Assembly: GCA_051883655.1 (NCBI GenBank)
Contig: JBJEUD010000085.1
Span: 3,100-67,099, forward strand
DNA length: 64,000 nucleotides
Source: Candidatus Faecivicinus sp.
GTDB lineage: Bacteria > Bacillota > Clostridia > Christensenellales > Aristaeellaceae
Direction: 5' to 3'
This document shows positions 20,661-63,370 of this stretch, piece after piece. Below the pieces are notes generated by a model. It was given only the letters and a program-made list of their open reading frames with translations, was not told where the DNA came from and did no database searches. The number at the start of each line of letters is the position of its first letter. The stretch's first letter is position 1. The position numbers were made by a program, and so were the translations under genes.

Positions 20661-21131
20661 ATGAAAAAGCTGAACATCATCCTGCTGGTCGTGCTCATTC
20701 TGCTGGTCGCCTTTGTGGCGTACTTCTTCATTGGCGGCACGCTGCAGGCGCAGCCCCAGGCGGCCACCGCCCCCGCCGCCGACCATCCCGAAGCCTTTGC
20801 TTCGATTCAAAACATCCTGTCCTCCGGCGCCGCGCCGAGGCAATTTGCGGAGCTTCCCGCCAGCGCCGACGGCTGCACGCTGGCAGACGTCACGATCACG
20901 CTGTCCAACTACGGCCTGTTCGACGCGGAGTGGATTGACGTCTCCGTGACCCCCGCCGACGGGGACATCGCCGTGTACTCGCTGACGGGCGAGGCCTCCT
21001 CCCTTCCCGCCCGCTCCACCGGCCAGATCAACCTGAAGCTGATCACCACCGCCGCTCCCGGCGTTCAGCGAACCGTGGAGATCCACTACTACATCTTCGG
21101 CATGCTGCGCTCCATCTCGCTGACGATTTGA
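20661..21131 (+). CDS. Hypothetical membrane-anchored protein
   Basis: N-terminal TM helix MKKLNIILLVVLILLVAFVAYFFIGG, then a soluble part of about 120 aa. Has its own promoter and terminator. No family recognised. Confidence 0.55.
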   Translation: MKKLNIILLVVLILLVAFVAYFFIGGTLQAQPQAATAPAADHPEAFASIQNILSSGAAPRQFAELPASADGCTLADVTITLSNYGLFDAEWIDVSVTPADGDIAVYSLTGEASSLPARSTGQINLKLITTAAPGVQRTVEIHYYIFGMLRSISLTI

Positions 21132-21205: not shown

Positions 21206-21248
21206 ATAAAAATGCGCTGCCGAACGCAATCGGTTCGGCAGCGCATTT
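21206..21248 (-). terminator. Rho-independent terminator closing the CotH/VTC/DUF4956/LTD operon
   Basis: aaatgcgctgccgaac / gttcggcagcgcattt stem. On the minus strand it is followed by TTTTTAT. Confidence 0.75.
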
Positions 21249-21283: not shown

Positions 21284-22549
21284 TCAGCCGTTGGCCGCGC
21301 CGGGCGTGGGCGTCGCCGTCGACCACGTGCCGTCGGCCGCCTTGGACCAGGCGGTGTCGCTCTTCATCAGGTCGAAATCCACGCGGTCGACCACCTGTCC
21401 CGTCGCATCGGCGAGCAGCACCGATTCGCCCTCGGAGCTCAGTCCGAAGTTGGCGTGGGGATTGCCTGCGTCGGCGCGGTCCAGTCCGGACGCGTAGATG
21501 ATCCTGTACTCGCCCGGCTGCAGCACGAAGCCCTCGGGGATTCGCCACTTGGTCGGCTGGCCGACTGTGTCGGACGCGAACCAGCCGCTCAGGTCGATGG
21601 CCGCGCCGGTGGTATTGTGCAGCTCGAAATAGTCGTGGAACCCGCCGTTTTCGTCGGGAGCATATTTCGTGTTCGAGGAGACAACCTCGGTGATCTCCAC
21701 GCCGGCATCGGTTCTCGCCTGGTGCAGCGCGGTATAGCTCTCGGCCGAATTGGACAGGCCCGGCGTGGCCATGCTGCTCACGGACCAGGTGGTCTCGTCC
21801 TGGCGCACATAGGCCATATCGGCCGTCATCGCGGGGAAGTTCACCGAATCCACCGCCGTGCCGGAGCCATTGAACAGCATCAGCGTGCCGCCCTGGGACG
21901 ACAGCCGGAAGGGCGCATGATACGCCTTGCCTGCCTCCTGCTGGAGCGTGCTGTCCGCATAGACGATGGCGCACTCGCCGGGCTGCAGCGTGTGGTTCGG
22001 GAAGGTGAACACATTCGCGGAGTGCTCATTCTTGCCCAGCGAGTAGCCGGCCAGGTTGACCGCCTTGCCGCTCACATTGGCGACCTCAATCCAGTCCGCC
22101 GTCAGGCCATTGTCATCCACGGCGGTGCTGTCGTTGCTGCTCATCAGCTCGTTGATGCGGATCGGGCCGCTTCCGTGAATCTCGGACACAGCGGACGACG
22201 CCGTCACCGCGCCGTTATTCTGACCCACCGAGAATCCATTGGGCCAGATCAGCTGCGCCGCGACGCCGATGGCAATCAGCGCGATGGCAATGCCCGCCAG
22301 CCGGCCGAAGTCATACGGCAGCCGTCGGGGCGCTCTCGCCGGTCCCCGCTGCGGCACAGCGCTGCGCACAGGCGCGGCGGGCCTCGCCGGCGCGGCAGGT
22401 CTTGCCGGCGGATTCGGCCGGGTCTGCCCTGCGGGACCGCCCGTGACAGAGCGCACCCTCACGACAGGCCGCTGGGCCGGGCGATCGTACGGCTCCTGGC
22501 GGCGCTGCGGCATTCCACCCGGTCTGACCGGGCGCTTGTTTTGCGACAC
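21284..22549 (-). CDS. Membrane-anchored protein with two lamin-tail domains (LTD) and a Pro/Arg-rich cytoplasmic N-terminus
   Basis: GTG start with AAGGAGGG SD. TM helix LAGIAIALIAIGVAAQLIW. Two LTD-type repeats: IRINELMSSN...DWIEVANVSGKAVNLAGYSL and VEITEVVSSN...DYFELHNTTGAAIDLSGWFAS. Confidence 0.75.
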   Translation of the reverse strand: MSQNKRPVRPGGMPQRRQEPYDRPAQRPVVRVRSVTGGPAGQTRPNPPARPAAPARPAAPVRSAVPQRGPARAPRRLPYDFGRLAGIAIALIAIGVAAQLIWPNGFSVGQNNGAVTASSAVSEIHGSGPIRINELMSSNDSTAVDDNGLTADWIEVANVSGKAVNLAGYSLGKNEHSANVFTFPNHTLQPGECAIVYADSTLQQEAGKAYHAPFRLSSQGGTLMLFNGSGTAVDSVNFPAMTADMAYVRQDETTWSVSSMATPGLSNSAESYTALHQARTDAGVEITEVVSSNTKYAPDENGGFHDYFELHNTTGAAIDLSGWFASDTVGQPTKWRIPEGFVLQPGEYRIIYASGLDRADAGNPHANFGLSSEGESVLLADATGQVVDRVDFDLMKSDTAWSKAADGTWSTATPTPGAANG

Positions 22550-22620
22550 GGGATTCCCTCCTTATTCCCACGCGGGGCGATGCACTCGCGCCCGTGCGGG
22601 TTGATCCTTCGGAATGTGGA

Positions 22621-23280
22621 TTACGCAGCCTCGCCCTGATAGGAGACCAGCGTCGCATCCTGCACGCCGGGAACGGAATGAATCTTGTTCAGCACGGCTT
22701 CGGGCTTGTCGAGGCGAACCTCATAGGTCATCTCGATGCCGGCGCTGGAGATGTTCTTGGACTTCAGCTTCTGAATGCGGATGCTGCCGACGAGCTGGGT
22801 GACCGGGCGCTCGGCCTCTTCGGTCATGCGCACCACCAGCAGATAGCTGTTCAGGCCCTTGGACTGGATGTTCACCAGCAGGGTGAGCAGCAGGGCGATG
22901 AACACCACGGAGAGCGCGGTGAGCAGATACTGGCCCGCGCCCAGCAGAATGCCCGTGGTCAGCGCCCAGAACATGTAAGCGGTATCCAGCGGATCCTTCA
23001 CCGCCGTGCGGAAGCGGACGATGGACAGCGCGCCCACCATGCCCATGGACAGGGCAATGGAATTGCGGATGCACAGCACCACAGGCGTGGTGATCAGCGT
23101 CATCATGATCAGCGTCATGGCAAAATTGCTGGAATACATCACACCGCGATAATTGCGGCGGTAGACCCATGCGATTCCGTAGCCCAGCACTACGGCGAGA
23201 AGCATCGACACGATAATGGTCAGAATCGAAGAGACGCCCAGCGTCATGGAGCTGGTCAGATCGGCGGTCAGGTTGTTCAT
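22621..23280 (-). CDS. DUF4956 domain-containing membrane protein
   Basis: SILTIIVSMLLAVVLGYGIAWVYRR...GALSIVRFRTAVKDPLDTAYMFWALTTGILLGAGQY matches the DUF4956 pattern as I recall it. GGAGGAGG SD lies upstream of the ATG at 23280. Confidence 0.7.
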   Translation of the reverse strand: MNNLTADLTSSMTLGVSSILTIIVSMLLAVVLGYGIAWVYRRNYRGVMYSSNFAMTLIMMTLITTPVVLCIRNSIALSMGMVGALSIVRFRTAVKDPLDTAYMFWALTTGILLGAGQYLLTALSVVFIALLLTLLVNIQSKGLNSYLLVVRMTEEAERPVTQLVGSIRIQKLKSKNISSAGIEMTYEVRLDKPEAVLNKIHSVPGVQDATLVSYQGEAA

Positions 23281-23338
23281 CGGTATTTCCTCCTCCATCA
23301 TTATCGCTTCCACATTTCGGGAAGTTGTGCACAAAATA

Positions 23339-24088
23339 TCAGTCGAAGCTGCCTCCGCCCAGCGGCTCAAAGCGGCGGCAAAGCACGTATTTCGAAACAG
23401 CGCTTCGCTCCGCCCGGATTCCGGTCAGCAGCTTGTGAATGTGATCGGGCAGATAGCTGTCGAACTTGACCTCGAGGATCTCCAGCTTTTCGTCCAGCGG
23501 ACTGATCACGGGGATGTGCGGATTGAACAGGTCCGTGCTGCCCAGCCCCGACCTGAGCTTCAGGTCAAACGTGATGCGCACGTTCTCCGCCGGGTGCAGA
23601 TAGGCCTCCCGCTCGTAATCCACAATCACGCTGGGCCGGAGCAGCTTTGTGCGCATCTGCACGAACATGTCCTGCAGCAGCGGGTTGCTGGACCGGTACA
23701 GCCCCCGGGGATCGCCCGCGATCATCTGCTCGCAGAGCCTGCGGGTAATCTGCACGGAGGACTTCTGGATCAGGTCGCCCAGCTTGCGCTTGCGCTCCAG
23801 GAAGATCTCCTCATCGGAATAGCGGTAGATGCGGATGCGGTACTTGTCGCGGTGCATCACGCCGCCCACCTTGTCGAAATACGCGCTGTCGTCGATATCG
23901 TCGAAGTAGAGCGATCGTATGGCGTAGGGGCGGCCGCCGCGGCAATGGGAATCCAGCTTCATGCCCCTTCGCAGCTGAATGCGCAGCGCCTCGACCTCGG
24001 CGGGATGAATGAAGTATTTCAGTTCATGCCGCGCGGGCAGTTCGGCTCTCTTCTGCTGCAAGCTCTTTCCCCCTTCATTACGCGCCAT
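23339..24088 (-). CDS. VTC-domain (polyphosphate polymerase-like, triphosphate-tunnel fold) protein
   Basis: HELKYFI... opening (tunnel-fold ExK-type motif), RSLYFDD and YRIRIYRY, as in bacterial VTC-domain proteins. GGAGGTGG SD. The start overlaps the cotH-like stop by 11 nt. Confidence 0.7.
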   Translation of the reverse strand: MARNEGGKSLQQKRAELPARHELKYFIHPAEVEALRIQLRRGMKLDSHCRGGRPYAIRSLYFDDIDDSAYFDKVGGVMHRDKYRIRIYRYSDEEIFLERKRKLGDLIQKSSVQITRRLCEQMIAGDPRGLYRSSNPLLQDMFVQMRTKLLRPSVIVDYEREAYLHPAENVRITFDLKLRSGLGSTDLFNPHIPVISPLDEKLEILEVKFDSYLPDHIHKLLTGIRAERSAVSKYVLCRRFEPLGGGSFD

Positions 24089-27000
24089 AGTTCTGTGCCA
24101 CCTCCAGCGCCTCGCCAAAGTATTTGTACATTTCTTCCGTGCTCATCTTCAGGTATTCCGTGGTGCTGAAGTACTTCAGCAGCTTCATCGGGCGCTCCAC
24201 CGCGTAGTTGATCAGGAACTTGAGCTCCTTCTGGTATTTCTCCGCCGACGTGTTCCAGCGCGCCAGCTGTTCGGGCAGCAGCGGCTCGAGGATTTCATAG
24301 CGCTCGCGGATCATCCTGACGACGTTTTCGGAGGAGAACGTCGTCGCCATCTCCTGGCCCATGTGGGTCAGGAACTCGTCGCGGAAGCGCGGATTCTTCA
24401 TGCACGCGATGAACAGCGTGTTGTCCGTGCGCGAGTTGGCGCCCATGCCGCCCGGCGTCAGCCAGCGGTTGATGGAGTTGGTGTCCGTGGTAAACGCCCA
24501 GTCGAAGTCGAACAGCACCCAGCGCCACTTGCCGTCGGCGTTGGCGTTGCGATAGCGCTTGACGTTGAGCGTGTCGGTATTGCCCGTGAAGATCTCGACG
24601 GCCATGTACTCAATGAAATTCTGAATGTCGATGGCCTGGTCCAGATTCTCATAGAACGCATCGGTGGTGGGATCTGCCTTCTTCACCGCCGCGAGCAGCG
24701 CGGCGAAGGTCTCGTTGGAGCCCTGCATGGTGTTGGTGTTGGCCTTCACCAGGTCGATGTCGTCCTCGTCCCCCTCCCAGCCCTCAAACTGGCAGATTGA
24801 CTCAGGATTGATGCGCTCGCGGATGTTGTACTGCCCCCAGTACTGGCCATCCAGATAGAGCACGCAGATCTCCGTCTCCTGATACAGCACCGACGTGTCC
24901 GCCGCCAGCGCGCTGAGGATGGAGTCGCGCATGCGGGTCTTGTCGGTATCCTGGCCGGAGGAGCGCAGAATGAACGACTGATACTCGGTATAATCGCGGT
25001 TGGAGAACAGCGCGATGGGGAAGCGGCTGGAGCCGTACCGGGTGCGGGCAATCACCTTGAATGCCTGCTGGTATTCCGCGCGGCTGTACTGTCCGTGCAG
25101 CTTGATGCCGCAGCCCTGCGAGAGCAGCTCGCTTCCGTCCCCGCCGTAGATTTCCACATGGGCCTCGCGCTCCCAGTCCTGCCAGAAGTTCGCGCCTGTA
25201 TAGGGATAGTCGCTGGAGGCGTTCGGCCCCTTGACCATGATGCCCGTCTCCTCACTGGTCAGGTTCGCGGGATCGGACACGAGCGAGACGACGTAGACGC
25301 CATTGCCGTTGTTGACGTCATAGAGATAGCTCTGGGTATCCATAAAGGACTCCAGATAGTTGTCCGCATACACGCGGGTGCGCAGGATGGTGGTGGACGA
25401 AATCTCGATCGGGCCGGTGTACAGCGTATCCGATTCGTCCGGATCGCTGGAATCCAGCGTATAGTAGATGCGCGCATTCGGCACCGCGCTGGTGATCTCC
25501 ACCGAAACCGTCTCGCCGGTGGTAAACATGCCGCCGCGGACGGAATAGGTGGGCGCAGGCGCCTTGCCCATATAGGCCGCGCCGTCGTTGCGGGCCAGGG
25601 GCGTCGCCAGAGAGAAGAACCGCAGGCCGCCAACGCCTTCCACGCGCCCGTAGGTCACGCCTTCATACTGCTGCGGCACATGGATCCGGTCGACGATGGT
25701 CCCGTCGGGATAGCTGAGCGTCAGCGAATAGCCGCCGTCCGCAGACAGGCTGAAATTCGTGTAGATCTTGCCGCCCTCCACCTTGTCCTCGCCGGAGCAG
25801 AACACCGCGGCGTACTGGCCGGGCTGAAGGACGGTGCCCTCCGGGAACTGCCACTTGCGGGGCCGGGAGGCGTTGTCGGACAGGCCCCAGCCGGACAAAT
25901 CGACAGCCGTCGAGCCCGAATTGTACAGTTCAATCCAGTCCGGCGTGCTGCCGGAGGCCGCTGCGGCGATCTCGTTGATGATCACGCCTTCGGAATTGTA
26001 CTGCCGTATGCTCTCTCCCGCCGTCGCCGCGCTCTCCAGCGTATTGGCCATGCCCGGTGTGGGCGCAGAGCTGAGCGTCCAGCTGTTGTCGACCAGCGAA
26101 TAGGCCTGATCGGTCTCCAGCGCAGGCACCTCAACCATCGAGGCCGTTTTTCCATCGCTGCGGGTCAGAATGACCTGTGTGCCGTCGCCGTTCAAGCGGA
26201 AGCTGGCGTGCAGATGGGCGGGATCCTTCCGGTCATAGCCGGAACAGTGAACGATCAGACTGCCGCCGGCGGGAATGGAGACCTCCGGAAACTGCCAGCG
26301 GGCGACGTTCGCAAGGTCGTCGCTCAAAAACCAGCCCTTCAGGCTGATCTCCGCATCACTGACATTGGTCAGCTCCACATAATCATAGTACTCGCCGTTT
26401 TCATCGGCCGCATAGGTCGCGTTTCGCGACATGACCTCCGCAATGACAACTCCGCTGTCCTCAATCGTCAGTTCAGCGGTCTGGGTCGCAGCCGACTCCG
26501 CCACGCGATTGGCCTCGCCCGGCGTCGACGCAAAGCTGGTCTGCCATTCGCCCGCGCCGTCCCGGCAATAGACCTGATCCGCCTCCAGCGGGGGCGTCTG
26601 AATGGAATCCACCGCCTGTCCTGCGGCGTTCAGCAGCGTCAGTGTTTCTCCGGAGGAGGCGATTTTGAACGGCAGGTGGATCTCGCCGTCCTTCGAAGCG
26701 TCCTTTCCGTCGGCATAGACCACCAGATATCCGCCCGCCGCAATCGTCGTGCCCGAGAAGCGGTACATCTGCGTCGGATCGCCGTTGGTCATGATCACGT
26801 AGCCCGAAAGCGATGCGTCCGCGCTTCCCGTGTTTTCCAGCTCGATCCAGTCCGGCAGCGAGCCATCCGCGCGCATCAGTGCGGACGCGTTTGACGCCAT
26901 CACCTCGCTGAAGCGAACCGGGCTCTCTGCAGTCACCGTGGTATTGTAGCCCGCGCTCGCGGACACACCGCCCGGGTTCTGCGCCGCCAAAACGCACAGC

Positions 27001-27089
27001 AGCGCGATCAGAACTCCGGCTGCCGCGAGCAATCCCAGACCGATCGCGCTTTCCCGGATTCCCACCCGGTGTTTCTTCTTCTTAGCCAC
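24078..27089 (-). CDS. CotH kinase family protein with N-terminal membrane anchor and three lamin-tail domains
   Basis: GTG start with GGAGG SD. TM helix AIGLGLLAAAGVLIALLCVLAA. Three LTD repeats (FSEVMASN...DWIELENTG; VIAEVMSRN...DYVELTNVS; VIINEIAAA...DWIELYNSG). CotH-type core: GIKLHGQYSRAEYQQAFKVIAR...FILRSSGQD...LYLDGQYWGQYNIRERI. Confidence 0.85.
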   Translation of the reverse strand: MAKKKKHRVGIRESAIGLGLLAAAGVLIALLCVLAAQNPGGVSASAGYNTTVTAESPVRFSEVMASNASALMRADGSLPDWIELENTGSADASLSGYVIMTNGDPTQMYRFSGTTIAAGGYLVVYADGKDASKDGEIHLPFKIASSGETLTLLNAAGQAVDSIQTPPLEADQVYCRDGAGEWQTSFASTPGEANRVAESAATQTAELTIEDSGVVIAEVMSRNATYAADENGEYYDYVELTNVSDAEISLKGWFLSDDLANVARWQFPEVSIPAGGSLIVHCSGYDRKDPAHLHASFRLNGDGTQVILTRSDGKTASMVEVPALETDQAYSLVDNSWTLSSAPTPGMANTLESAATAGESIRQYNSEGVIINEIAAAASGSTPDWIELYNSGSTAVDLSGWGLSDNASRPRKWQFPEGTVLQPGQYAAVFCSGEDKVEGGKIYTNFSLSADGGYSLTLSYPDGTIVDRIHVPQQYEGVTYGRVEGVGGLRFFSLATPLARNDGAAYMGKAPAPTYSVRGGMFTTGETVSVEITSAVPNARIYYTLDSSDPDESDTLYTGPIEISSTTILRTRVYADNYLESFMDTQSYLYDVNNGNGVYVVSLVSDPANLTSEETGIMVKGPNASSDYPYTGANFWQDWEREAHVEIYGGDGSELLSQGCGIKLHGQYSRAEYQQAFKVIARTRYGSSRFPIALFSNRDYTEYQSFILRSSGQDTDKTRMRDSILSALAADTSVLYQETEICVLYLDGQYWGQYNIRERINPESICQFEGWEGDEDDIDLVKANTNTMQGSNETFAALLAAVKKADPTTDAFYENLDQAIDIQNFIEYMAVEIFTGNTDTLNVKRYRNANADGKWRWVLFDFDWAFTTDTNSINRWLTPGGMGANSRTDNTLFIACMKNPRFRDEFLTHMGQEMATTFSSENVVRMIRERYEILEPLLPEQLARWNTSAEKYQKELKFLINYAVERPMKLLKYFSTTEYLKMSTEEMYKYFGEALEVAQNYGA

Positions 27090-27273
27090 TCTGTGCCTCC
27101 ATTCAGGCGATTACTACCCCTATGATTGCATATATCAATATAATACACCGCAAAACGCGCCAAATGTAGTCAATTTTCCAATATCTATCTGAATATTTTG
27201 TAAAATCGCCCTCACCGGAAGTGAAAAGCGCCCGTCGCCAGCCTCTGCGCCTCCTCTTCTCCCGCTGGCGCAC

Positions 27274-29068: not shown

Positions 29069-29117
29069 AAACTGGTAATTGAGCGCCCCCGCTGCGGGCT
29101 TTGAAAGGAATCGGATT

Positions 29118-30986
29118 ATGAACGAGATGCTTCTGACGGCCCTTCGCGCCATCCTGCTGTGCCTGTCGTTTTTCGGGCTGTGCGCGACTGTGCGCAACTC
29201 GCTGAAACTGAACCGCTTTATCGTGCCCGCCTTCGCGGCCTGCACGATCATCTGCGTGCTGATGTTCGCCGGCATGCTGCATGTGCTGAAATACGGCTTT
29301 TATCTGCTGTACTTCGGCGGCTTTGCCGGTCTGATCTATACCTATATTGTCCGCAGGGTCCGGCCGGACTGGCTGCTGATCGGCCTGTTCGCGGTCTTCG
29401 CGGGATATCTGGCCTGGCGGATGGGCCCGACCCACTTGAATGAGTGGGACGATCTGTCCCACTGGGGGCTGGTCGCCCGCCACCTGCTGCGCGCGGACGC
29501 CTTCCCGGACGCTTCGACGACCACTGTCACCTTCCAGTCCTATCCGTTGGGATCGGCCTGCTTCATCTATTATGTCGGCCGCACGGTGTGCAATACAGAG
29601 GGACTCTATCTGTTTGCGCAAAACCTCCTCTGCGGGCTTCTGTTCACGCCCGTGCTGGCCCATATCCGCGGAAACCGCCGTTATCTCTATCCTGCGGCCG
29701 GCCTTCTGTTCGTCCTGCTGTTCCGCTTCAACCATGCCATGGACACCCTGTTCGTGGACTGGCAGCTGAGCTTTCTGGGCATCGGCGCCGCAGCCTCGGT
29801 GCTTTACTACAAAGACGATCTGCGCAAGGCAGTGCTGGCCGGCATGCCCTGCATCATCGCCGTGGTCTTTCTGAAGAACAGCGGCCTGTTCTTCTCGGCG
29901 GCCACGGCTGCGCTGCTGGCCTGGGTCGCGCACCGCAACGGCCGTTCGCGGGGGCGCGCGGCGGGCGTGCTGCTGGCGAGCATTCTCGCGGCGGCCGCGG
30001 CCTATCTGCTGTGGACGGTGCATGTGCGGCTGGACTTCGTCGACGGCATGTCCACGAAGCACGCCGTTTCCATTTCCCAATATGCGAGCAATCTGAACTC
30101 CAAGGGCCTGATTACGGTTCTGCGCATCGTCAAGCGCATGCTGCTCGCGCTGATTCACCCCTATTTCTTCCAGGTGTTCTCCGCGCTGTTCATGGTCGCC
30201 GCCTTCGCCCTGAACCGGCTGGCGTGCCGCTTCCGCCCGGAGCTGCAGTCTCTGCGCCGCCCGACCGCCCACGGCCTTTGGGCCTGCGTTGCGGCCTACG
30301 CCGTCTGGCACTTCATGGTATTCCTCATGTACGTGTTCTCCATGTCCACCGCGGAGGCCCTGCGGCTCGCGTCCTACTGGCGCTACAGCACCACCGGCCT
30401 GCTTTACATGATGGGCTGCGCCGCCATCCTGCTGTTCGACCTCCTCAGCCGGCCGGAGCTACGCCCGGCCAGGTGGGTGAAATTCGCATGCATCGGCACG
30501 GCGGTGGTCTGTGCAGCCGTCGCGCCGATTCTCGCCGTGTCTGAATTCGACATGGTAGAATTGCGCGCCTACTATCCCGCCTTTGTTCAGCGCGAAACGG
30601 AATACAACCCGCTGCGCGCCGGCACGCTGAAGGCCAAGGAGGCCTATGACCTCCCGGAAGACGGCAGCTATCTGATCTACGCCGGAGGAGACATCATCGG
30701 CGCCGCTGCAAACGCCTATTACCGCGCCGTCAAGTACGACCTGAACAGTCTGAACATCGACATCATCGCCCGCATCATCGACGACAAGGAGACGAATGCC
30801 GAATACACGATCAAATCCGACGAGGTCAGCGGCACCTTCGATTCCCCCATCGATTTCCTGGAAAGCCATCTGGACAATTACGATGCTTTTCTGATCCTGT
30901 TCGAGGACGAGCGGTTTGAAACGGATGTCGCGGACTTTCTGAGCGCCTGGACCGGCGATACGCCCGTCCTCTTCATCTATCGCTGA
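29118..30986 (+). CDS. Hypothetical polytopic membrane protein (about 12 or more TM helices plus a soluble C-terminal domain of about 150 aa); possible GT-C-type glycosyltransferase
   Basis: Hydrophobic-helix pattern throughout aa 1-470. Acidic loop motif HLNEWDDLSHWG after the early TM helices. No family recognised with certainty. Confidence 0.6.
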   Translation: MNEMLLTALRAILLCLSFFGLCATVRNSLKLNRFIVPAFAACTIICVLMFAGMLHVLKYGFYLLYFGGFAGLIYTYIVRRVRPDWLLIGLFAVFAGYLAWRMGPTHLNEWDDLSHWGLVARHLLRADAFPDASTTTVTFQSYPLGSACFIYYVGRTVCNTEGLYLFAQNLLCGLLFTPVLAHIRGNRRYLYPAAGLLFVLLFRFNHAMDTLFVDWQLSFLGIGAAASVLYYKDDLRKAVLAGMPCIIAVVFLKNSGLFFSAATAALLAWVAHRNGRSRGRAAGVLLASILAAAAAYLLWTVHVRLDFVDGMSTKHAVSISQYASNLNSKGLITVLRIVKRMLLALIHPYFFQVFSALFMVAAFALNRLACRFRPELQSLRRPTAHGLWACVAAYAVWHFMVFLMYVFSMSTAEALRLASYWRYSTTGLLYMMGCAAILLFDLLSRPELRPARWVKFACIGTAVVCAAVAPILAVSEFDMVELRAYYPAFVQRETEYNPLRAGTLKAKEAYDLPEDGSYLIYAGGDIIGAAANAYYRAVKYDLNSLNIDIIARIIDDKETNAEYTIKSDEVSGTFDSPIDFLESHLDNYDAFLILFEDERFETDVADFLSAWTGDTPVLFIYR

Positions 30987-49368: not shown

Positions 49369-50481
49369 TCATTCCTTTCCCGGGAGCTCCCATCGCGTAT
49401 ACATCAGCGTGCAGGGTTCATTCTCGACGGGTTTCTGATAGTACACTGTCAGGATGCTGTGATCTGCCAGTTCGACCGAGGCGGGATAGCCGAGGTCGCT
49501 GGAGGGTGCATTGGTATCGATGAGGTAGTCCATGTCCCACGACTGGCCGCCGTCGCGGCTGATCATGGCGGACTCGCCGAAGGGTTCTTTGCGACGGCCG
49601 TATACGCACACCAGCGCGCCGGAGGAATGCTGGATCAGATGGGGCGGGGAACCGCAGCAGCCGAGATCCCGTGCCACGGTCCACGTTCTTCCGCCGTCGG
49701 TGGACTCGGTCTGGAAGATGGTGAAGGGCTCGTGGTTGCGATAGCCCTCCGCGTGCTGATAGCGGATGTGGCCGATGAGTTTGCTGTCGGGCAGCTCAAT
49801 CACATGAGGCTCGAAGTAATTGTTGTTGTGAGTGCCTTCCGGCAGTGGGATGGCGGCCAGAGTTTCCCATGTTGCACCCTCGTCAGAGGAAATGCAGGCG
49901 TAGATTGCACCGCCGTCACCGATGGGCTCTTTGTTGATGAAGTCCTTGCCGAGGATCAGCAGTCGTCCGTCGCGCAGCTTTGCCGGGCCGTGGGGCGCGG
50001 TGACAGGGATGCGGTGGGGCTCGCCCCACGTGACGCCGCCGTCTTCGCTCAGTCGGCAGAAGGAACCGGCGTACTTCTCGTTCAGCGCATCGGTGTAGTG
50101 CATGGTCATGGCGTCAAATACCGCCTTCTGCTGATCGCTGAGGCTCTCTCTCGCATGGATATAGCGGGAGAGATACTTGGTTTCGAGGTTGAACCATGTC
50201 AGCAGCAGCTTGCTGCCGCCGAGGTAAAGAATGCCAGCATCGCGATCGTCCAGAGGCGTGTCGTTGACGATAATTGGGCCGAGCCATGTTTTGCCGTCGT
50301 TGCGGCTGATGTACATTGTGGTCTTTCCGCAGAAGCACAGATGGCTCATGCGCATGCCGGAAGCCACGGCGATGAGGGTACCATCCGGGAGCCGCTCGAC
50401 GGAGGGCCATGCAGTGTAACCAAAGATGGACTCCGGATTTCGGCAGATGCAGCCCTTATCGAGGATTTTTACTTTTTTCAT
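49369..50481 (-). CDS. BNR/Asp-box repeat protein, sialidase-like beta-propeller, no signal peptide
   Basis: Five Asp-boxes: SRNDGKTW, SEDGGVTW, SSDEGATW, STDGGRTW, SRDGGQSW. AGGAGA SD lies 9 nt upstream of the ATG at 50481. Confidence 0.75.
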   Translation of the reverse strand: MKKVKILDKGCICRNPESIFGYTAWPSVERLPDGTLIAVASGMRMSHLCFCGKTTMYISRNDGKTWLGPIIVNDTPLDDRDAGILYLGGSKLLLTWFNLETKYLSRYIHARESLSDQQKAVFDAMTMHYTDALNEKYAGSFCRLSEDGGVTWGEPHRIPVTAPHGPAKLRDGRLLILGKDFINKEPIGDGGAIYACISSDEGATWETLAAIPLPEGTHNNNYFEPHVIELPDSKLIGHIRYQHAEGYRNHEPFTIFQTESTDGGRTWTVARDLGCCGSPPHLIQHSSGALVCVYGRRKEPFGESAMISRDGGQSWDMDYLIDTNAPSSDLGYPASVELADHSILTVYYQKPVENEPCTLMYTRWELPGKE

Positions 50482-50550
50482 TACATTCATTCTCCTGGAA
50501 ATTGCGGGAGTATCCAAGGATCTCCCGCAGTATCAGTTGGAATGCAGTTG

Positions 50551-52041
50551 TTATTTGGCGAGCATCTCTTCATATTCGGCAATGATGTCATCCAAACCGG
50601 CAGCGCTCAGGTCGGCGAGGTAGCCATCCCAGGCTTCGTCGATATCGATATTGCCCATCAAGGCGTCGGCGTAGAAGGTGTCGGCGACGGTGGAAACGTC
50701 AGCGCCGTACCAGGTGTTGGCTTCATTCTCGCCGGAAACGTAGAAGTTCTTGCCGTGATAGACGACAGGATTTGCCTGAGCGATGGCGTGCGACTCGACG
50801 TACTCGGTCATGACTTCCTTGTTGTACTCCTCAAAGGACTTGGGCTGCATGCCCCACCAGTAGCCAACGCCTTCTGCCATAAGCGCTGCGTTGTCGGTGA
50901 TGAGCTTCTTGTAGTAGCCGTCAACCTTCTCATAGTGCACGCCTTCGGTGCCGAAGTACATGTAGTCATACAGCTCGGAATCGGATGCCATGGCCTCCTT
51001 GATTTCCATGATCTTGATGCACTCTTCATCGGTGGTGTCGTAGCCGAACATGAAGGCGCCCTGATTGCCGAGGGCAGAGGGGTAGTCAACGTAGGAGCCG
51101 CCTCCCTCGAATGCGGGCATGTAAGAGATCACAGCATCGGGGTTCTGGTCGGTGACCATGTTCTGCAGAATGCCGGAGGAGCACCAGGAGGCGTTGTCAG
51201 GCAGCACGCCGAACAGGCCCTGGCCCCACTTTTCACGCTGCTTGGTGCGGTCGTCCGTGATGGTTTCGGGATCGATGATGCCCTCCTTGTACCAGCTCTG
51301 CAGGAGTTTCATGACTTCCTTGTACGCCTCGGTAGCGCTGGTATAGACCACAGAGCCATCTTCCTGAGCATAGTAGGAATTCTTCATGATGCCATAGGCG
51401 CCGAAGACGTAGTTGAAGTAGTAGCGGCCGTTGCCGTTCATGCCATAGGTGTCGTCCACGCCGTTCCCATCGGGATCGTCATAGGTGAAGGCATACAGCA
51501 TGTCGTGGAACTCTTCTACATTGGTGGGCATGGACAGGCCCAGATTGTCCAGCCAGTCCTGACGAACCAGGAAGATGCCGGGCTCCATGAAGTTGGCCAT
51601 GACCAGCGGAACAGCGTACAGCTCGCCGTCCACGGAGCACTGGTCAATCAGCGTCTGAACGTCGCCGCCAACCAGGGAAGCAGCCTTCTCCATCCAGGTG
51701 GGCATGTACTGTTCGAGCCATTCAACGGGAATGGAACGGGCAAGTCCCTGCTCCACACAGGTGTTGAACTGATCTGCGCCGAGGGTGAGGTTCAGCACGT
51801 CGAACTCGCCGCCGCCGGAGAGCCACAGATTGAACTGTTCCTCATCCATTGCGTCAATGGACGGAAACTCGAGGTTGACGTTGAAGCGCTCCTCCAGATA
51901 GAGCTCACGCTCCTGATCCGGCTGGGGAGACTGGGAATAGCCCACCCAGGTGATCGTCAGGCGCTCTTCTTCCGCAGAGGCGATCGCTGCCATGGAGAGA
52001 ATGAGCATGAGAGCCAGTACGATGGAAAGGAACTTTTTCAT
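50551..52041 (-). CDS. Extracellular solute-binding protein (large LplA-type carbohydrate binding protein)
   Basis: Signal peptide MKKFLSIVLALMLILSMAAIASA; 496 aa. Lies upstream of the enzymes and downstream of the two permeases. Confidence 0.8.
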   Translation of the reverse strand: MKKFLSIVLALMLILSMAAIASAEEERLTITWVGYSQSPQPDQERELYLEERFNVNLEFPSIDAMDEEQFNLWLSGGGEFDVLNLTLGADQFNTCVEQGLARSIPVEWLEQYMPTWMEKAASLVGGDVQTLIDQCSVDGELYAVPLVMANFMEPGIFLVRQDWLDNLGLSMPTNVEEFHDMLYAFTYDDPDGNGVDDTYGMNGNGRYYFNYVFGAYGIMKNSYYAQEDGSVVYTSATEAYKEVMKLLQSWYKEGIIDPETITDDRTKQREKWGQGLFGVLPDNASWCSSGILQNMVTDQNPDAVISYMPAFEGGGSYVDYPSALGNQGAFMFGYDTTDEECIKIMEIKEAMASDSELYDYMYFGTEGVHYEKVDGYYKKLITDNAALMAEGVGYWWGMQPKSFEEYNKEVMTEYVESHAIAQANPVVYHGKNFYVSGENEANTWYGADVSTVADTFYADALMGNIDIDEAWDGYLADLSAAGLDDIIAEYEEMLAK

Positions 52042-52096
52042 GGGGTTACCTCCTTCTTATTGATCCCGCTTGCCTGCGGGATAGCTACATAATGGA

Positions 52097-52978
52097 TTAT
52101 CCCTTCAGCGCGCCGACCATAACGCCTTTGACGAAATATTTCTGCAGGAAGGGATACACCAGCAGAATCGGGCCGAGAGAAATCACAATGGTGGCAGCGC
52201 GAACCGACGAGGACGCTACGTTGGCATCCACCATCAGCGAGTTTTCATTCATGCCCTGTGCTTCGATTACCATCTCGCGCACCAGCAGCGCCAGGGGTTT
52301 CATGTCCGGAGCGTTCGTGTAGAGCATGGCGTCGAAATAGGCATTCCACTGTCCGACCGCGACCCATAGCGCCAGCACTGCGAGGATGGGCTTGGACAGC
52401 GGCAACAGGATCTGGAAGATGATGCGCAGCGGGTGCGCGCCGTCGATGGCGGCGGATTCCTCCAGTTCGTAGGGCAGGCTCTGGACGAAGTTGCGGGCAA
52501 TGACCAGGTTCCATGCAGAGGTCAGTCCGGGCAAAATCAGCGCCCAGCGGGAGCCGATCAGACCGAGATTCTTGATCAGCAGATAACCGGGAATCAATCC
52601 GCCACTGAAGAACATGGTGAATACAATCAGGAAGGTGATGACATTCTTGAACGGCATGCCGCGGCGGCTCAGACCGTATGCGCCGAAGTAGGTGAGCATG
52701 ACGTGCAGGCTGGTGGTGGCGACGGTGCGGATGATGGTGTTCTTATAAGCGGACCAGATCTGGTTCCTGCCGAATACATACCGGTAGGCGGCGAGACTCC
52801 ATTCCTTGGGCCAGAACTTGAAGCCGATGCTGTCGGCAGTTCTGGAAGATGAAAAGGATTGAACCACAGTTGTCCACAGCGGGTACAGGAAGGCAAAACT
52901 GAAAATGACCATGATGACGGAAATCACTGCGATCATGATCTTGTCCGAATTGGTGCGGCGATGCATCATCATTACCAT
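52097..52978 (-). CDS. Carbohydrate ABC transporter permease (LplC-type)
   Basis: 6 TM helices and the EAA-type loop ESAAIDGAHPLRIIFQILLPLSKP. Confidence 0.88.
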   Translation of the reverse strand: MVMMMHRRTNSDKIMIAVISVIMVIFSFAFLYPLWTTVVQSFSSSRTADSIGFKFWPKEWSLAAYRYVFGRNQIWSAYKNTIIRTVATTSLHVMLTYFGAYGLSRRGMPFKNVITFLIVFTMFFSGGLIPGYLLIKNLGLIGSRWALILPGLTSAWNLVIARNFVQSLPYELEESAAIDGAHPLRIIFQILLPLSKPILAVLALWVAVGQWNAYFDAMLYTNAPDMKPLALLVREMVIEAQGMNENSLMVDANVASSSVRAATIVISLGPILLVYPFLQKYFVKGVMVGALKG

Positions 52979-53922
52979 ATGCCCCCTTCCCCGTGGCTAA
53001 GCTTCTTGGCCGCCCAGTTTGTTGCGATGACCAGTACAAAACCAATCCCGTTTTTGAAAAGGCTGATGGCGGTGGACAGACTGTAATCCATCTTGCCCTC
53101 AAGGCCCACGCGGTAGGCGTAGGTATCGATGATGTCGCCGGTCTCGTAAAGCAGTGAGTTGTAGGTGTTGAAAACCTGATCAAAACCGCCGCTGAGGATG
53201 CCGCCGATGGACATGATCAGCTGGATGGAAACAACGCTCATGATGGACGGCAGCGTGATGTACCACATGCACTTCAGGCGGCTCGCGCCGTCGATGGCTG
53301 CAGCCTCATATTGCTCCGTAGGGATGCCGGCGATGGCGGCCAGATAGATGACGGAGCTCCATCCCATCTCCTTCCATATTCCTGAGATGACCAGTATCGA
53401 TCGGTAGTATCTCGAATCCGCCATGAAGTAGACCGGCTCGAAGCCCAGCAGCTGCAGCAGGTAGTTGACTGCGCCGCGGGTAGGGCTGAGCAATTCGGTG
53501 ATGATACCTCCCAGAATGACCCACGAGATAAAGTGGGGCAGATAGGAGATGGTCTGCACTGTCTTTTTGAATTTGCTGCTGGTTATTTCATTCAGCATCA
53601 GCGCAAAGAGAATGGGCATAGGGAATCCGAAGATGATGCGGTAAACGCTGATCAGGAGGGTGTTGCGCACTGTTCGCAGGAACATCGCGCTGCCGAACAG
53701 GCGCTCAAAGTTGGTAAATCCAATCCATGGCGAGCCGAGAATGCCCTTTCGGATGGCGTATTTCTTGAATGCCAGCACAATGCCGTACATCGGCACGTAA
53801 TGAAAGAGGATGAAGAATGCAATGACAGGAATCAGCAGGATGTAAGCCCATCTGTACTTGTACATGGTTCGCAGAAGGCTTGTTTTGTTTCTGAGGGTGG
53901 TTGGCACAGACGGGTTGCTCAT
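52972..53922 (-). CDS. Carbohydrate ABC transporter permease (LplB-type)
   Basis: YRWAYILLIPVIAFFILFHYVPMYGIVLAFK and the EAA loop EAAAIDGASRLKCMWYITLPSI. Confidence 0.88.
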   Translation of the reverse strand: MSNPSVPTTLRNKTSLLRTMYKYRWAYILLIPVIAFFILFHYVPMYGIVLAFKKYAIRKGILGSPWIGFTNFERLFGSAMFLRTVRNTLLISVYRIIFGFPMPILFALMLNEITSSKFKKTVQTISYLPHFISWVILGGIITELLSPTRGAVNYLLQLLGFEPVYFMADSRYYRSILVISGIWKEMGWSSVIYLAAIAGIPTEQYEAAAIDGASRLKCMWYITLPSIMSVVSIQLIMSIGGILSGGFDQVFNTYNSLLYETGDIIDTYAYRVGLEGKMDYSLSTAISLFKNGIGFVLVIATNWAAKKLSHGEGGIW

Positions 53923-53971
53923 TTGCGCTCACAACTCCTTTGCAGTGGATATGAATACGTCTTTGAACCGG

Positions 53972-55024
53972 TCAGGTTTTGCGGATGACGAACTCCGGCA
54001 CAAAGTTGCGCACGGTGATCGGGTGTGCTTCGTCGCCCTCGATGCGGCGAATCAGCTGCTGAATGGCGCTCTTGCCGATGCGCTCCACAGGAAAGGAGAT
54101 GCTGGTCAGCGGTGGATTATGTATTTTGGAAAGCATGGTATCATTGATTCCTACCAGCGAAAGCTCGCCGGGAATGCTCTTGCCGCTCTCGGTGATGACG
54201 TCTCTCAGATGCACCATCACGTTGTCCGGGGCGACGATGCTGTCATATTCGTCGCTGAGCGCCTTCAGCTTCATGCGGATTTCGCGGATGTCGTTGCTCC
54301 ATTCGATCAGATATCGAGGATCCCGCTCCAATTCGTAGCGCTCGGCGAACTCCTCGTAGGCATCCAGTTCCTCCTGGACGAACTTCGCGGAATCGTGCAG
54401 CACGATGACGGTTTTGCGCTTGCCGGTGGTATACAGATAGTCCAGCGCGTTTTCCATGCCCCTCTTCAGGTCCATGGAATAGGTGTCGGTCTCGATGCCG
54501 GGCAAGCTGCGGTTGATGCACACAGTAGGGATCTGATTCAGCAGCGCGTGCACCCGCTGCATGTCGCCAATGAACTTGGGATCGTCCTTCGGCGGAACAA
54601 TGAGAAGCCCGACCGCGCCGGCATCGATCAGATGCTCGAGACTGTCGCAGAATACGTCGTAGCGCTCGGAGTGGTTTACCAGTGAAAGATAGTAATCCAC
54701 CGGAAGATTCTTCTGAATGTGCTCCAGAATCATGTTTTCAACGCGCATACCCACGCAGAAATCAAACATCATTACGCCGATCATGCGGTTTTTGTGGGGC
54801 GTGTGAATCACATAGGTGCCATTGCCCTCGCGCACGGTGGCGAGACCTTCGTTTACCAGCATGGCGATGGCGGTGTTGACGGTGTTCTTGCTCATGCCGT
54901 ATTCATCTGCCAGTGCGCGGATGGAGGGCAGCTTGCTGTCTTCTCCGTACTTGCCTTCAGCAATGTCGTTTTTCAGAATTTCATAAAGCTGGCGGGCTTT
55001 GCCCATAGTGACAATTTGTTTCAT
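53972..55024 (-). CDS. GntR-family HTH regulator fused to a LacI/PBP1-type sugar-binding domain
   Basis: ARQLYEILKNDIAEGKYGEDSKLPSIRALADEYGMSKNTVNTAIAMLVNEGL (GntR HTH), followed by a periplasmic-binding-protein-like domain of about 270 aa. Confidence 0.85.
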   Translation of the reverse strand: MKQIVTMGKARQLYEILKNDIAEGKYGEDSKLPSIRALADEYGMSKNTVNTAIAMLVNEGLATVREGNGTYVIHTPHKNRMIGVMMFDFCVGMRVENMILEHIQKNLPVDYYLSLVNHSERYDVFCDSLEHLIDAGAVGLLIVPPKDDPKFIGDMQRVHALLNQIPTVCINRSLPGIETDTYSMDLKRGMENALDYLYTTGKRKTVIVLHDSAKFVQEELDAYEEFAERYELERDPRYLIEWSNDIREIRMKLKALSDEYDSIVAPDNVMVHLRDVITESGKSIPGELSLVGINDTMLSKIHNPPLTSISFPVERIGKSAIQQLIRRIEGDEAHPITVRNFVPEFVIRKT

Positions 55025-55099
55025 GTAAAGAAGCTCCATTCGATGCGGATTGATGGATAAGGTGGGTGAGTCATGTTCGAGTGTCCCAATTAATAGGCC

Positions 55100-55116
55100 A
55101 AGTGTCTTATACACTT
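55100..55116 (-). promoter_or_regulatory. Palindrome, candidate GntR-type operator
   Basis: AAGTGTcttatACACTT (GT-N-AC type with an AT-rich centre), immediately downstream of the -10 of the GntR promoter. Confidence 0.35.
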
Positions 55117-55144
55117 ATTATAACAGATTCTTCACATCTGTCAA
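55117..55144 (-). promoter_or_regulatory. Sigma-A-like promoter (extended -10) of the GntR/ABC/BNR operon
   Basis: Minus strand: TTGACA (55144-55139), 16 nt ending in TGT, TATAAT (55122-55117). Confidence 0.55.
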
Positions 55145-55217
55145 TAGAGAATTTTGATTGAGACCACAGAAAGATTGCATCTTGCCCCTTTCCCAAAGGA
55201 ATCCTTTCCTTCGGTAC

Positions 55218-55385
55218 TTCGGCGCAAACACGATGTGCGTCGTTGTCCCGGAACCTGCGCCGCCGGTTCTGACCAATCGTCGTCGCGTCCGGCGCCGTCT
55301 CCGTCAAATTCAGCCCGCAAAACCGCTTGTTCGCGCTGTTGTCGTTGATCTCTTCCTCCAACCGCGCTTCAGACTTGACCCCGTT
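55218..55385 (-). mobile_element. Remnant of an IS5/IS1182-type transposase N-terminal (DUF772-like) region
   Basis: The translated segment GVKSEARLEEEINDNSANKRFCGLNLTETAPDATTIGQNRRRRF parallels the conserved GLSD.ELEE.L.D....R.FLGL.L.D.VPDHST..RFR.RL block. No catalytic domain and no inverted repeats were seen. Confidence 0.5.
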
Positions 55386-55446
55386 TTTTCGCATAATGAT
55401 GACCGTTGACTTTGGTTTGTCAACGGTCTGCTGTGATAGGTATTGT

Positions 55447-55475
55447 TTGCATTTTGAAAACAGGCATGCTATAAT
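55447..55475 (+). promoter_or_regulatory. Sigma-A-like promoter for the AraC-family gene
   Basis: TTGCAT (55447-55452), 17 nt, TATAAT (55470-55475). SD AAGGGGGA. Confidence 0.6.
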
Positions 55476-55500
55476 AATAGAAATCAAGGGGGAATCCAGC

Positions 55501-56361
55501 ATGCCCGATCTCATCAATGGTGAAACCGCGATGATCGCCTATCAGACGTTCGAGGGAAAGCCCACATCCTCGTATGTCCCCGAGGTTCATGTCGCGGACC
55601 GTCATCTTCACAAAGAGGTAGAAATGGCTTTCGTGGAAAAGGGCAAACTGACCGTTCGGATCATGGACGAGATCGACGTAGCGGTACATGAAGGCGAAGT
55701 CATCTCCATCAGCGGCAGCACGCTGCACAAGTATACCAACGAGGATCCCGGCACGATCATCATCAAGACCAAATTCATGAAGGACTGGCTGTTTCTGCCC
55801 TTCCTGGACGAGCAGGAGCGCGCAAACTGCCAGCATCTGTACGACGAGGTTTTTGTCGCGCGCGCCGAACAGCCCGTGCGCGAACTCTTTGCCGCGCTGG
55901 TGGCCAGTGAGGATCATCCCTATAACGATCTGTTTGTATTTTCCAAGATTCTCGAGCTGACTGCCTACCTGCTCAAAAACCCCGGCGCCATCCGCCGGGA
56001 GGAGCCGGTCAACATCGAGAGCGCACTGCACATGGACAAGGTGCTGCACTTTCTGCAGACGAACTGCAGCAATCCCAATCTCACACTGCCCATGCTCGCC
56101 CAGCACCTGGGACTTTCGGAGAGCTATTGCTCAAAGTTCTTCAGCAAGAATGTGAAAATGACTTTCGTCGAATACGTCAACGCGCTCCGCGCCAACGCCG
56201 CGCAGTATATGCTGATCAACTCCGACGCCAGCATTACGGAAATTCAGCAGAAGGCCGGTTTTGGCAGCATTCAGACCTTCAACCGCGTATTCAAAAAGCA
56301 AACCAAGATGACCCCCAGCGAATACCGGCAGCGCAAAGGCAAGGGCCGTCAGTGCAAATAG
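55501..56361 (+). CDS. AraC family transcriptional regulator (cupin sensor plus HTH)
   Basis: C-terminal AraC HTH: LAQHLGLSESYCSKFFSKNVKMTFVEYVNALRANAAQYMLINSDASITEIQQKAGFGSIQTFNRVFKKQTKMTPSEYR. Confidence 0.9.
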   Translation: MPDLINGETAMIAYQTFEGKPTSSYVPEVHVADRHLHKEVEMAFVEKGKLTVRIMDEIDVAVHEGEVISISGSTLHKYTNEDPGTIIIKTKFMKDWLFLPFLDEQERANCQHLYDEVFVARAEQPVRELFAALVASEDHPYNDLFVFSKILELTAYLLKNPGAIRREEPVNIESALHMDKVLHFLQTNCSNPNLTLPMLAQHLGLSESYCSKFFSKNVKMTFVEYVNALRANAAQYMLINSDASITEIQQKAGFGSIQTFNRVFKKQTKMTPSEYRQRKGKGRQCK

Positions 56362-62501: not shown

Positions 62502-62514
62502 GCTGTCGTCCTCC

Positions 62515-63354: not shown

Positions 63355-63370
63355 GACGCCGGCCCCCTTC

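Follow-up and report, generated by a model that had tools for sequence, protein, structure and literature searches.

A stand-alone operon of Candidatus Faecivicinus joins a VTC-type tunnel enzyme and a DUF4956 membrane protein to predicted surface CotH and lamin-tail-domain proteins

Introduction

Genes for a CotH-family protein, a poly-phosphate polymerase, a DUF4956 protein and a DUF4832 protein have been described as accessory genes contiguous with the pel operons of Streptococci, Clostridia and Bifidobacteria (Whitfield et al., bioRxiv 10.1101/768473 / PMC7112168). In S. intermedius the genes SIR_1594, SIR_1593 and SIR_1592, encoding CotH, VTC and DUF4956 proteins, respectively, were each deleted singly: the DUF4956 mutant (ΔSIR_1592) formed more Pel and the CotH mutant (ΔSIR_1594) less, and both aggregated less in artificial sputum medium (PMC12345266). 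The triad was reported not to be found outside pel loci (PMC12345266). Here we analyse an operon of Candidatus Faecivicinus sp. in which the same three families are joined to proteins rich in lamin-tail domains (LTDs). It fills 27089-21284 on the minus strand of a 64,000-nucleotide stretch of DNA (positions 3,100 to 67,099 of contig JBJEUD010000085.1, assembly GCA_051883655.1), which as a whole is called the window. An earlier note on this DNA knew of no experimentally defined function for the gene combination; the triad had in fact been described beside pel (bioRxiv 10.1101/768473) and knocked out in S. intermedius (PMC12345266). The gene combination is already known, and what is new here is a stand-alone, LTD-rich variant of a triad that had been noticed and left unexplained.

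The enzymes credited with making inorganic polyphosphate (polyP) in bacteria are PPK1 and PPK2, VTC being regarded as eukaryotic. The PPK enzymes, unrelated in fold to VTC enzymes, are not known to pair with a dedicated membrane protein or with a surface kinase; both types would make the same polymer from a nucleoside triphosphate. The yeast VTC complex (Vtc4/Vtc3 or Vtc2/Vtc1; Protein Data Bank (PDB) entries 3g3q, 3g3r, 7ytj, 8i6v) is a coupled polyP polymerase-translocase. In the cryo-electron microscopy study of this complex, polyP synthesis in vivo depended on the residues that coordinate Mn2+-triphosphate, and the polyP channel is lined at its cytoplasmic mouth by rings of basic residues (bioRxiv 10.1101/2023.01.27.525886). 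K458 separates the active Vtc4 from the inactive Vtc2 and Vtc3. A review of VTC distribution surveys eukaryotes only (PMC10657179). For CotH, the reference is the Bacillus subtilis spore-coat kinase, which requires for its activity a catalytic Asp (D228) and a metal-binding Asp (D251) (PMC7821199).

Results

A conserved gene block independent of pel

At E≤1e-3 the VTC query retrieved 4,983 cluster representatives at 50% identity. In a species-level genome collection, a search run with a 12-sequence VTC alignment found at least 597 stretches matching VTC, and the best 80 loci were examined (50-92% VTC identity, mostly metagenome-assembled genomes of Christensenellales and Oscillospiraceae) and scored by iterated hidden Markov model (HMM) searches of all open reading frames (ORFs). 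DUF4956 directly adjoins VTC in 79/79 evaluable loci, and a gene encoding CotH, three LTDs and a β-sandwich immediately precedes the pair in 66 of 74 evaluable loci (89%). Two gene orders occur, cotH-VTC-DUF4956 in 20 loci and cotH-DUF4956-VTC in 46, and many of the DUF4956-to-VTC gaps measure 2-5 nt. Recurrence of the block in 66 of 74 species-level loci goes beyond chance. The closest relative has URO-D rather than rny upstream, which argues that the four genes of the operon move as a unit. Outside this set, the CotH-VTC-DUF4956 triad is also present at a distant locus of a spore-former encoding BofA, in lineages whose VTC protein carries a charged, disordered N-terminal extension, and on a contig marked as archaeal by its GatD and GatE, both of which score above the cutoffs of the archaeal equivalogs. 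The VTC-DUF4956 linkage is invariant, and the cotH linkage near-invariant, through rearrangements and across two domains of life. The fourth gene of the operon, here called LTD2, is more narrowly distributed: as a separate downstream gene it occurs in 10 of the 80 loci, 8 of these at ≥71% VTC identity.

Some of the distant loci have further features of their own. The archaeal contig (L086/L087, 5685-15829) encodes, in sequence, CotH (1221 aa, no LTD), a 197-aa gene product, VTC, DUF4956, and products of 306 aa and 1106 aa; the three extra proteins have no Pfam match and may be lineage-specific partners. At the metagenome locus of the VTC homologue P0151, a divergent gene for a Ppx-GppA exopolyphosphatase lies directly upstream of cotH-VTC-DUF4956, and a YibE_F membrane protein is encoded downstream.

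The module of the window and its relatives is independent of pel, which contradicts the published report. The scanned flanks in the window hold rny and polA/coaE, and there is no contiguity with pelDEA(DA)FG or DUF4832; the Pfam scan of window genes covered the operon and its neighbours, and these neighbours, rny, polA and coaE among them, either have housekeeping roles or lack a Pfam match. Among the recurrent flank families of the 80 loci scanned with Pfam, there was no pel, DUF4832 or polysaccharide-synthesis gene. Clustering of the other neighbours gave no non-module family in more than 10 of the 80 loci, and the recurrent neighbours identified (SNF2 helicase, MATE, ABC transporter, P-type ATPase, DnaE, DEAD helicase, RNA methyltransferase) are all housekeeping. 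In common with the pel-linked triad, the three families are contiguous and co-directional, and the predictions place CotH outside the cytoplasm and VTC within it and give DUF4956 4-5 transmembrane (TM) helices and an ACT-like domain. Unlike it, the module has, here and in at least 66 related species, no pel gene among the flanks examined; the window's CotH protein has three N-terminal LTDs and a CHB_HEX_C β-sandwich, where the pel-linked CotH has a C-terminal FN3; and the operon adds a paralogue with two LTDs and a polycationic tail and lacks a DUF4832 hydrolase.

The same neighbourhood data bear on the idea that the genes form an exopolysaccharide or wall-glycopolymer module, with CotH as a glycan or matrix-protein kinase and the VTC/DUF4956 pair tuning polymer output. 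Among the kinases of the secretory pathway, Fam20B and POMK act in this way. This explanation overlaps the one favoured below and has no need of polyP export. It draws on the pel-adjacent position of the triad in Streptococci, Clostridia and Bifidobacteria (bioRxiv 10.1101/768473), on the lowered Pel of the CotH mutant and raised Pel of the DUF4956 mutant with weaker aggregation of both (PMC12345266), on the NELoc-2 locus of C. perfringens, where CotH and two VTC-domain genes stand with a glycosyltransferase and a polysaccharide deacetylase, on one relative (L084) with GT2 and GH16 genes upstream of the module, and on the carbohydrate-associated CHB_HEX_C_1/Fn3_assoc region of the CotH protein. 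Set against the 80 loci, whose identified flank families include no recurrent polysaccharide-synthesis gene, and against the scanned neighbours in the window, which are housekeeping genes or without Pfam match, it appears rather unlikely.

The VTC-domain protein

The VTC-domain gene (23339..24088, minus strand) starts with ATG and encodes a protein of 249 aa for which hydropathy gives no TM helix and in which VTC is the sole domain. The match to Pfam VTC (PF09359) reaches 125.8 bits against a cutoff of 23 (E 2.6e-36) and spans model positions 2-230 of 235. A profile of 49 diverse bacterial homologues matches yeast Vtc4 at E 1.3e-11; in this alignment K24, R84, R86, K100 and K109 fall on Vtc4 K200, R264, R266, K281 and K294, and Y158, R160, R171, E206 and K208 on Y359, R361, R373, E426 and K428. 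All ten residues are invariant among the 49 homologues. The Vtc4 triphosphate/Mn ligands (K200, R264, R266, K281, Y359, R361, E426) are thereby retained wherever they can be aligned; the ligand list and the data on the K/R rings are those of the VTC cryo-electron microscopy study (bioRxiv 10.1101/2023.01.27.525886).

Structure prediction leads to the same assignment. The AlphaFold2 (AF2) model of the protein has a mean predicted local distance difference test score (pLDDT) of 93.5 and a predicted template modelling score (pTM) of 0.88, and its top 13 PDB matches in Foldseek are all chains of Vtc4, Vtc2, Vtc3 or Vtc5 (best 3g3r_B, E 1.5e-14, TM-score 0.68). The next class of triphosphate tunnel metalloenzyme (TTM), ygiF, follows at 2e-8, and further TTM triphosphatases and cyclases are matched at 1e-7 to 1e-8. 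By modelled fold and by residues, the VTC protein is a soluble Vtc4-like triphosphate-tunnel enzyme, and it is rather likely, judged from the ligands kept, that it makes polyP. The NCBI family name, assigned by homology, is 'polyphosphate polymerase domain-containing protein'. The likeness to the yeast system comprises the tunnel-domain fold, the alignable triphosphate/Mn ligands and a membrane partner with basic residues on its cytoplasmic face, these being invariant in DUF4956. Unlike Vtc4, the window's protein has neither an SPX domain nor an attached three-helix TM domain of the Vtc type; it has a Glu in place of Thr198, and any product would go to the cell exterior instead of the vacuole lumen.

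Many VTC homologues of other lineages (P0125, P0129, P0151 and others; also L085) carry an N-terminal extension of 150-400 aa that is highly charged (K/R/E/P-rich), apparently disordered and without Pfam match, the VTC domain being always C-terminal.

The DUF4956 membrane protein

The DUF4956 gene (22621..23280, minus strand; ATG start, ribosome-binding site GGAGGAGG) encodes 219 aa, polytopic by hydropathy and matching Pfam DUF4956 at E 1.2e-9. Its nearly invariant core, GMVGALSIVRFRTAVKDPLD...FW (GMVGALS-IV-RFRTAVKDP-D...FW), is kept in the archaeal copy. The secondary structure of the AF2 model consists of five TM helices and a C-terminal β-α-β-β-α-β tail. Since the model (pLDDT 64) was built on a shallow alignment of 84% mean identity, its Foldseek result is weak, with the MgtC C-terminal domains 2lqj and 7qa5 and ACT domains matched at only E ~5e-3. 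MgtC (PF02308) gives sub-threshold matches in 21 of 39 DUF4956 members (best E 3.2e-4), with Pfam scores of 17.7-18.1 bits that stay under the gathering cutoff of 31.4, and phmmer of DUF4956 against the PDB returned noise only. On these sequence comparisons DUF4956 is a remote MgtC homologue only. By its low-confidence model it would share with the MgtC/SapB proteins (Salmonella MgtC; 2lqj, 7qa5) the five predicted TM helices and the C-terminal ACT-like βαββαβ domain, the HMM and Foldseek similarities being weak, and it differs from them by scoring below the MgtC gathering value, by its own invariant RFRTAVKDP motif and by being always paired with a VTC enzyme. We know of no link of DUF4956 to Mg2+ or ATP synthase.

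The predicted topology is N-out/C-in; by the positive-inside rule, the cytoplasmic parts would include the RFR...K motif as well as the ACT-like domain. The invariant basic motif R89-F-R91-x3-K95, likewise present in the archaeal copy, would lie at the cytoplasmic end of TM3. By analogy, this motif recalls the K/R rings at the mouth of the yeast polyP channel. Unlike the yeast complex, the locus encodes no Vtc1 homologues, and the membrane partner is instead an MgtC-like protein with five predicted helices and a predicted ACT-like domain. Because adjacency of the two genes is invariant and a spacing of 2-5 nt is frequent, the VTC enzyme is suggested to work at the membrane with DUF4956, and the two proteins probably act as a complex.

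The CotH and LTD proteins

The largest gene of the operon, cotH-LTD (24078..27089, minus strand; GTG start, ribosome-binding site GGAGG), encodes 1003 aa with Pfam matches to LTD ×3 (5.7e-55), to CotH (5.5e-42) and to a CHB_HEX_C_1/Fn3_assoc β-sandwich. From the N-terminus, the protein comprises a cationic tail, a TM helix (16-34), the three LTDs, the β-sandwich (523-586) and a CotH kinase-like domain (662-968). The CotH model (PF08757) is matched over positions 1-320 of 322 with 144.8 bits against a cutoff of 23.8. Neither the full protein nor its CotH domain had a phmmer match in the PDB, and the B. cereus CotH structure 5jd9 was reached only with a profile of 30 sequences (E 1.8e-4). In that alignment D839/N842 and D861/D863, invariant in the 30 orthologues, fall on the FDGFVHN and WDYD motifs of 5jd9. 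A cationic tail followed by a TM anchor of N-in/C-out orientation is found in 59 of 60 full-length CotH-LTD proteins, and the CotH and LTD domains are therefore predicted to lie outside the membrane.

The likeness to the Bacillus kinase (5jd9; B. subtilis D228/D251) consists in the Pfam CotH family, the catalytic Asp/Asn loop and the D-x-D metal site. Unlike the spore-coat enzyme, the window's CotH protein is membrane-anchored, outward-facing and fused to LTDs and a β-sandwich; it has no link to sporulation, and no CotB- or CotG-like SKR proteins are encoded near it. A spore-coat module of the Bacillus type would take its argument from the established role of CotH as spore-coat kinase (PMC7821199) and from the single distant locus in a BofA-encoding organism. 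The anchor is, however, of the Sec type with the N-terminus inside, not that of a protein of the mother-cell cytoplasm; the triad exists in an archaeon and in non-sporulating Streptococci and Bifidobacteria (bioRxiv 10.1101/768473); and the scanned flanks of the operon in the window hold no sporulation genes. On the grounds of topology and taxonomic spread, this very improbable explanation was rejected.

The LTD2 gene (21284..22549, minus strand; GTG start) encodes 421 aa with Pfam LTD ×2 (1.7e-35) and, by hydropathy, one N-terminal TM helix (84-102). BLASTP shows it to be paralogous to the anchor and LTD1-2 of the CotH protein (35% identity over 341 aa, E 8e-62). Its N-terminal cytoplasmic tail of 83 aa (window 22301-22549) is Arg/Pro-rich and polycationic. 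A net charge of +8 to +13 is found in the tails of 9 of 11 complete orthologues, composition being kept and sequence not (L004, L006-L012, L030). From its composition, the tail could be a disordered region that binds polyanions. At another relative locus (L047, 3-8776) three tandem CotH-type genes lie upstream of DUF4956-VTC, two encoding full CotH-LTD×3 proteins and one cut by the contig end.

Operon layout and surroundings

Four co-directional genes fill the operon, with one terminator at either end, between rny and polA; each is preceded by a GGAGG-type ribosome-binding site. The cotH-LTD and VTC genes overlap by 11 nt (ATG at 24088), and the remaining gaps are 58 nt and 71 nt. The VTC start is ambiguous. 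The TTG at 24061, which corresponds in position to the start called in close relatives, would give 240 aa and a 16-nt gap instead of the overlap; the first nine residues of the VTC protein are not conserved. Coupling of cotH-LTD and VTC is tight whichever start holds. The ORF listing runs the VTC and DUF4956 frames too far, to upstream TTG codons. The intrinsic terminator of the operon (21206..21244, minus strand) consists of a stem at 21244-21214 and a T-run to 21206; its hairpin folds with -29.8 kcal/mol (z -6.3) and is followed by UUUUUAU. On the other side, the rny terminator stem at 27307-27278 has -27.3 kcal/mol (z -3.8). No dinucleotide shuffle of either terminator folds as well. The operon with its overlap, gaps and two terminators had been read from the sequence in the earlier note, and gene calls and folding bear it out; its domain calls and topology agree with Pfam and hydropathy, which add the CHB_HEX_C_1/Fn3_assoc β-sandwich to the domains that it had listed.

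A putative promoter region, as read from the sequence, is placed at 27139..27206 on the minus strand. It comprises an AT-rich upstream element, GATTTTACAAAATATTCAGATAGATATTGGAAAATTGACTACATTTG, at 27207-27161, 5' of cotH-LTD, and a -10-like box, GTGTATTATA, at 27148-27139. The pattern GATTTTACAAAATATTC.G..AGATATTGGAA..TTG together with the GTGTATTATA box is kept in relatives that have a different upstream gene. Within the region, TTTACA-N5-TTCAGA resembles the direct repeats to which OmpR/PhoP-type regulators bind, and the AT-rich element may be a candidate site of phosphate-responsive control.

In GC content the operon region matches the remainder of the window, and housekeeping genes flank the 80 relative loci, neither of which points to a role as mobile element or in defence. 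Convergent to the operon, 20661-21131 (plus strand) encodes a 156-aa protein with an N-terminal TM helix and no Pfam match; L001-L003 have, between LTD2 and polA, a gene that matches it in size, placement and orientation. A 635-aa ORF at 29079-30986 (plus strand), divergent from rny and without Pfam match, has a hydrophobic, multi-helix, membrane-like translation and is not kept beside the module in relatives. Two segments of the window, ~50000-56000 and 62000-64000, have a GC content of 0.53-0.57 against ~0.62 elsewhere and may be foreign DNA or simply a differently composed stretch.

Discussion

The operon is tentatively understood, from the collective evidence, as a self-contained module of the cell envelope whose invariant core is the gene pair VTC-DUF4956. 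In the mechanism that we favour, the VTC enzyme would polymerise the γ-phosphate of a nucleoside triphosphate into polyP, as its fold and residues suggest, and would do so at the cytoplasmic face of the membrane together with the MgtC-like five-helix DUF4956 protein, so that the core pair would supply a phosphoanhydride polymer at or across the membrane. The usual third component would be the anchored, outward-facing CotH-family kinase with its three LTDs and carbohydrate-associated β-sandwich, to which the window's lineage adds a paralogue that lacks the kinase, has two LTDs and carries a polycationic tail in the cytoplasm. These surface proteins would bind the polymer, or would draw on it for the phosphorylation of a protein or glycopolymer at the surface. 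A module coupled in this manner, the core pair supplying the polymer to the CotH/LTD proteins, is the explanation to which we lean while holding it short of probable. That polyP reaches the outer face is doubtful when taken by itself, and the use of polyP as a donor by CotH is unlikely. The outer face of a monoderm cell has, to our knowledge, no ATP supply of its own, and a kinase that faces outward and lacks ATP counts in favour of an outward route of polyP. The same direction is indicated by the basic RFR...K motif of DUF4956, with its likeness to the K/R rings of yeast, and by the LTDs, which elsewhere accompany extracellular phosphoesterases acting on polyanions (PMC6085458). By their composition, the polycationic LTD2 tails and the charged VTC extensions would fit polyanion binding.

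Several observations weigh against this mechanism. DUF4956 is unrelated to the Vtc1-type channel subunits, and its structural model is one of low confidence; MgtC, its nearest relative, is known as a regulator (ATP synthase, PhoR) and not as a channel or transporter (PMC12345266). In 8 of the 74 loci the VTC-DUF4956 pair stands without an adjacent cotH and has housekeeping neighbours. The S. intermedius VTC mutant (ΔSIR_1593) equals the wild type, and loss of CotH or DUF4956 shifts Pel in opposite directions (PMC12345266); the silent VTC deletion argues against a strictly linear pathway from VTC over DUF4956 to CotH, at least in the assay used for S. intermedius. On the side of the enzyme, the equivalents of S457/K458 (S232/K233; K233 invariant, S232 nearly so) were placed by their spacing after E206, outside the HMM alignment, and a C-terminal sub-profile of the VTC family meant to place them did not retrieve Vtc4. 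The literature searched held no biochemical study or activity data for a prokaryotic VTC-domain protein or DUF4956. On the side of the acceptor, we know of no protein-kinase-like (PKL) enzyme that uses polyP.

Part of this evidence leads to a simpler explanation, in which VTC and DUF4956 form a membrane-tethered polyP synthase or regulator that serves the cytoplasm (storage, stress, phosphate homeostasis), with the ACT-like domain as sensor, and in which CotH-LTD is an ATP-dependent kinase or adhesin merely co-transcribed. Consistent with it are the core pairs without adjacent cotH among housekeeping flanks, the regulatory role of MgtC towards ATP synthase and PhoR, the failure of the VTC deletion to reproduce that of CotH, and the suggestion of the S. 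intermedius authors that polyP stays cytoplasmic (all PMC12345266 except the first). An adjacency of CotH in 89% of the loci that survives reordering, holds down to 50% identity and reaches as far as a spore-former and an archaeon would be difficult to account for if the genes were not functionally coupled, and the outward-facing kinase would be left without an evident source of ATP. We regard this explanation as a serious one that is nonetheless somewhat improbable.

The chemistry of the tunnel is a separate matter. The bacterial VTC family has an invariant Glu, E22 (window ~24025-24023), where Vtc4 has Thr198, and this residue is the middle position of the β1 ExExK strand (R-H-E-L-K). TTM hydrolases carry the ExExK motif on the corresponding strand. 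Hydrolase chemistry is therefore conceivable for the VTC protein, and E22 may, by its position, affect metal binding and the balance of polymerase and hydrolase activity. The VTC-like protein could accordingly be another tunnel enzyme (triphosphatase, polyP/NTP hydrolase or cyclase) in an operon for phosphate scavenging or signalling, a role that would also suit the Foldseek matches to TTM triphosphatases and cyclases, ygiF among them, with E-values of 1e-7 to 1e-8 and the association of LTDs with extracellular phosphoesterases elsewhere (PMC6085458). Yet the Vtc4, Vtc2 and Vtc3 chains are the best matches, with E-values better by about six orders of magnitude than those of other TTM proteins; the basic ligands specific to Vtc4 are kept, Y359 and R361 included; and the NCBI family, named by homology, is that of a polyphosphate polymerase domain. 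A non-polymerase is considered quite improbable on balance.

The favoured envelope module is close to what the earlier note had proposed, namely a phosphoanhydride polymer made in the cytoplasm and used or anchored outside. The checks that the note had named turned out in its favour where they concern linkage, residues and topology: the genes stay together in either order and at VTC identities as low as 50%, and they do so in a spore-former and an archaeon as well; the tunnel residues of VTC are kept in the alignment to Vtc4, as are the catalytic residues of CotH in that to 5jd9; and the outward anchor is found in 59 of 60 proteins. Passage of the polymer through DUF4956, which the note had also put forward, is not supported, DUF4956 being a remote relative of MgtC and not a channel subunit of the Vtc1 type. 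The proposed mechanism as a whole is a plausible and reasonable hypothesis that survives the in-silico refutation tests and is unproven. Its most far-reaching form, a prokaryotic VTC-type synthase-exporter in which a Vtc4-like enzyme and a DUF4956 oligomer would extrude polyP, the LTDs would hold the chain and CotH would use it as an ATP-independent donor, is distinctly unlikely.

Lastly, our analysis has importance for the distribution of VTC enzymes and for the surface biology of the organisms that encode them. Prokaryotic VTC-domain proteins number thousands of clusters (4,983 representatives), and in the relatives examined they always have a DUF4956 partner. If the VTC protein is a polymerase, it would constitute an unstudied source of polyP in abundant gut Clostridia, Streptococci, the pathogenicity loci of C. 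perfringens and archaea, and it would bear on the origin of the catalytic domain of eukaryotic VTC. The autonomous triad corrects the published inference that it is specific to pel and offers simpler genetic backgrounds for its study, and the near-obligate link to an outward-facing CotH protein raises the question of how phosphorylation outside the membrane is powered. Should the synthase-exporter be real, prokaryotes would possess, beside PPK1 and PPK2, a third route to polyP, and with it an ancestor or analogue of the VTC machine of eukaryotes; in monoderm bacteria and archaea it would also be a new way of delivering the energy for phosphoryl transfer outside the membrane.

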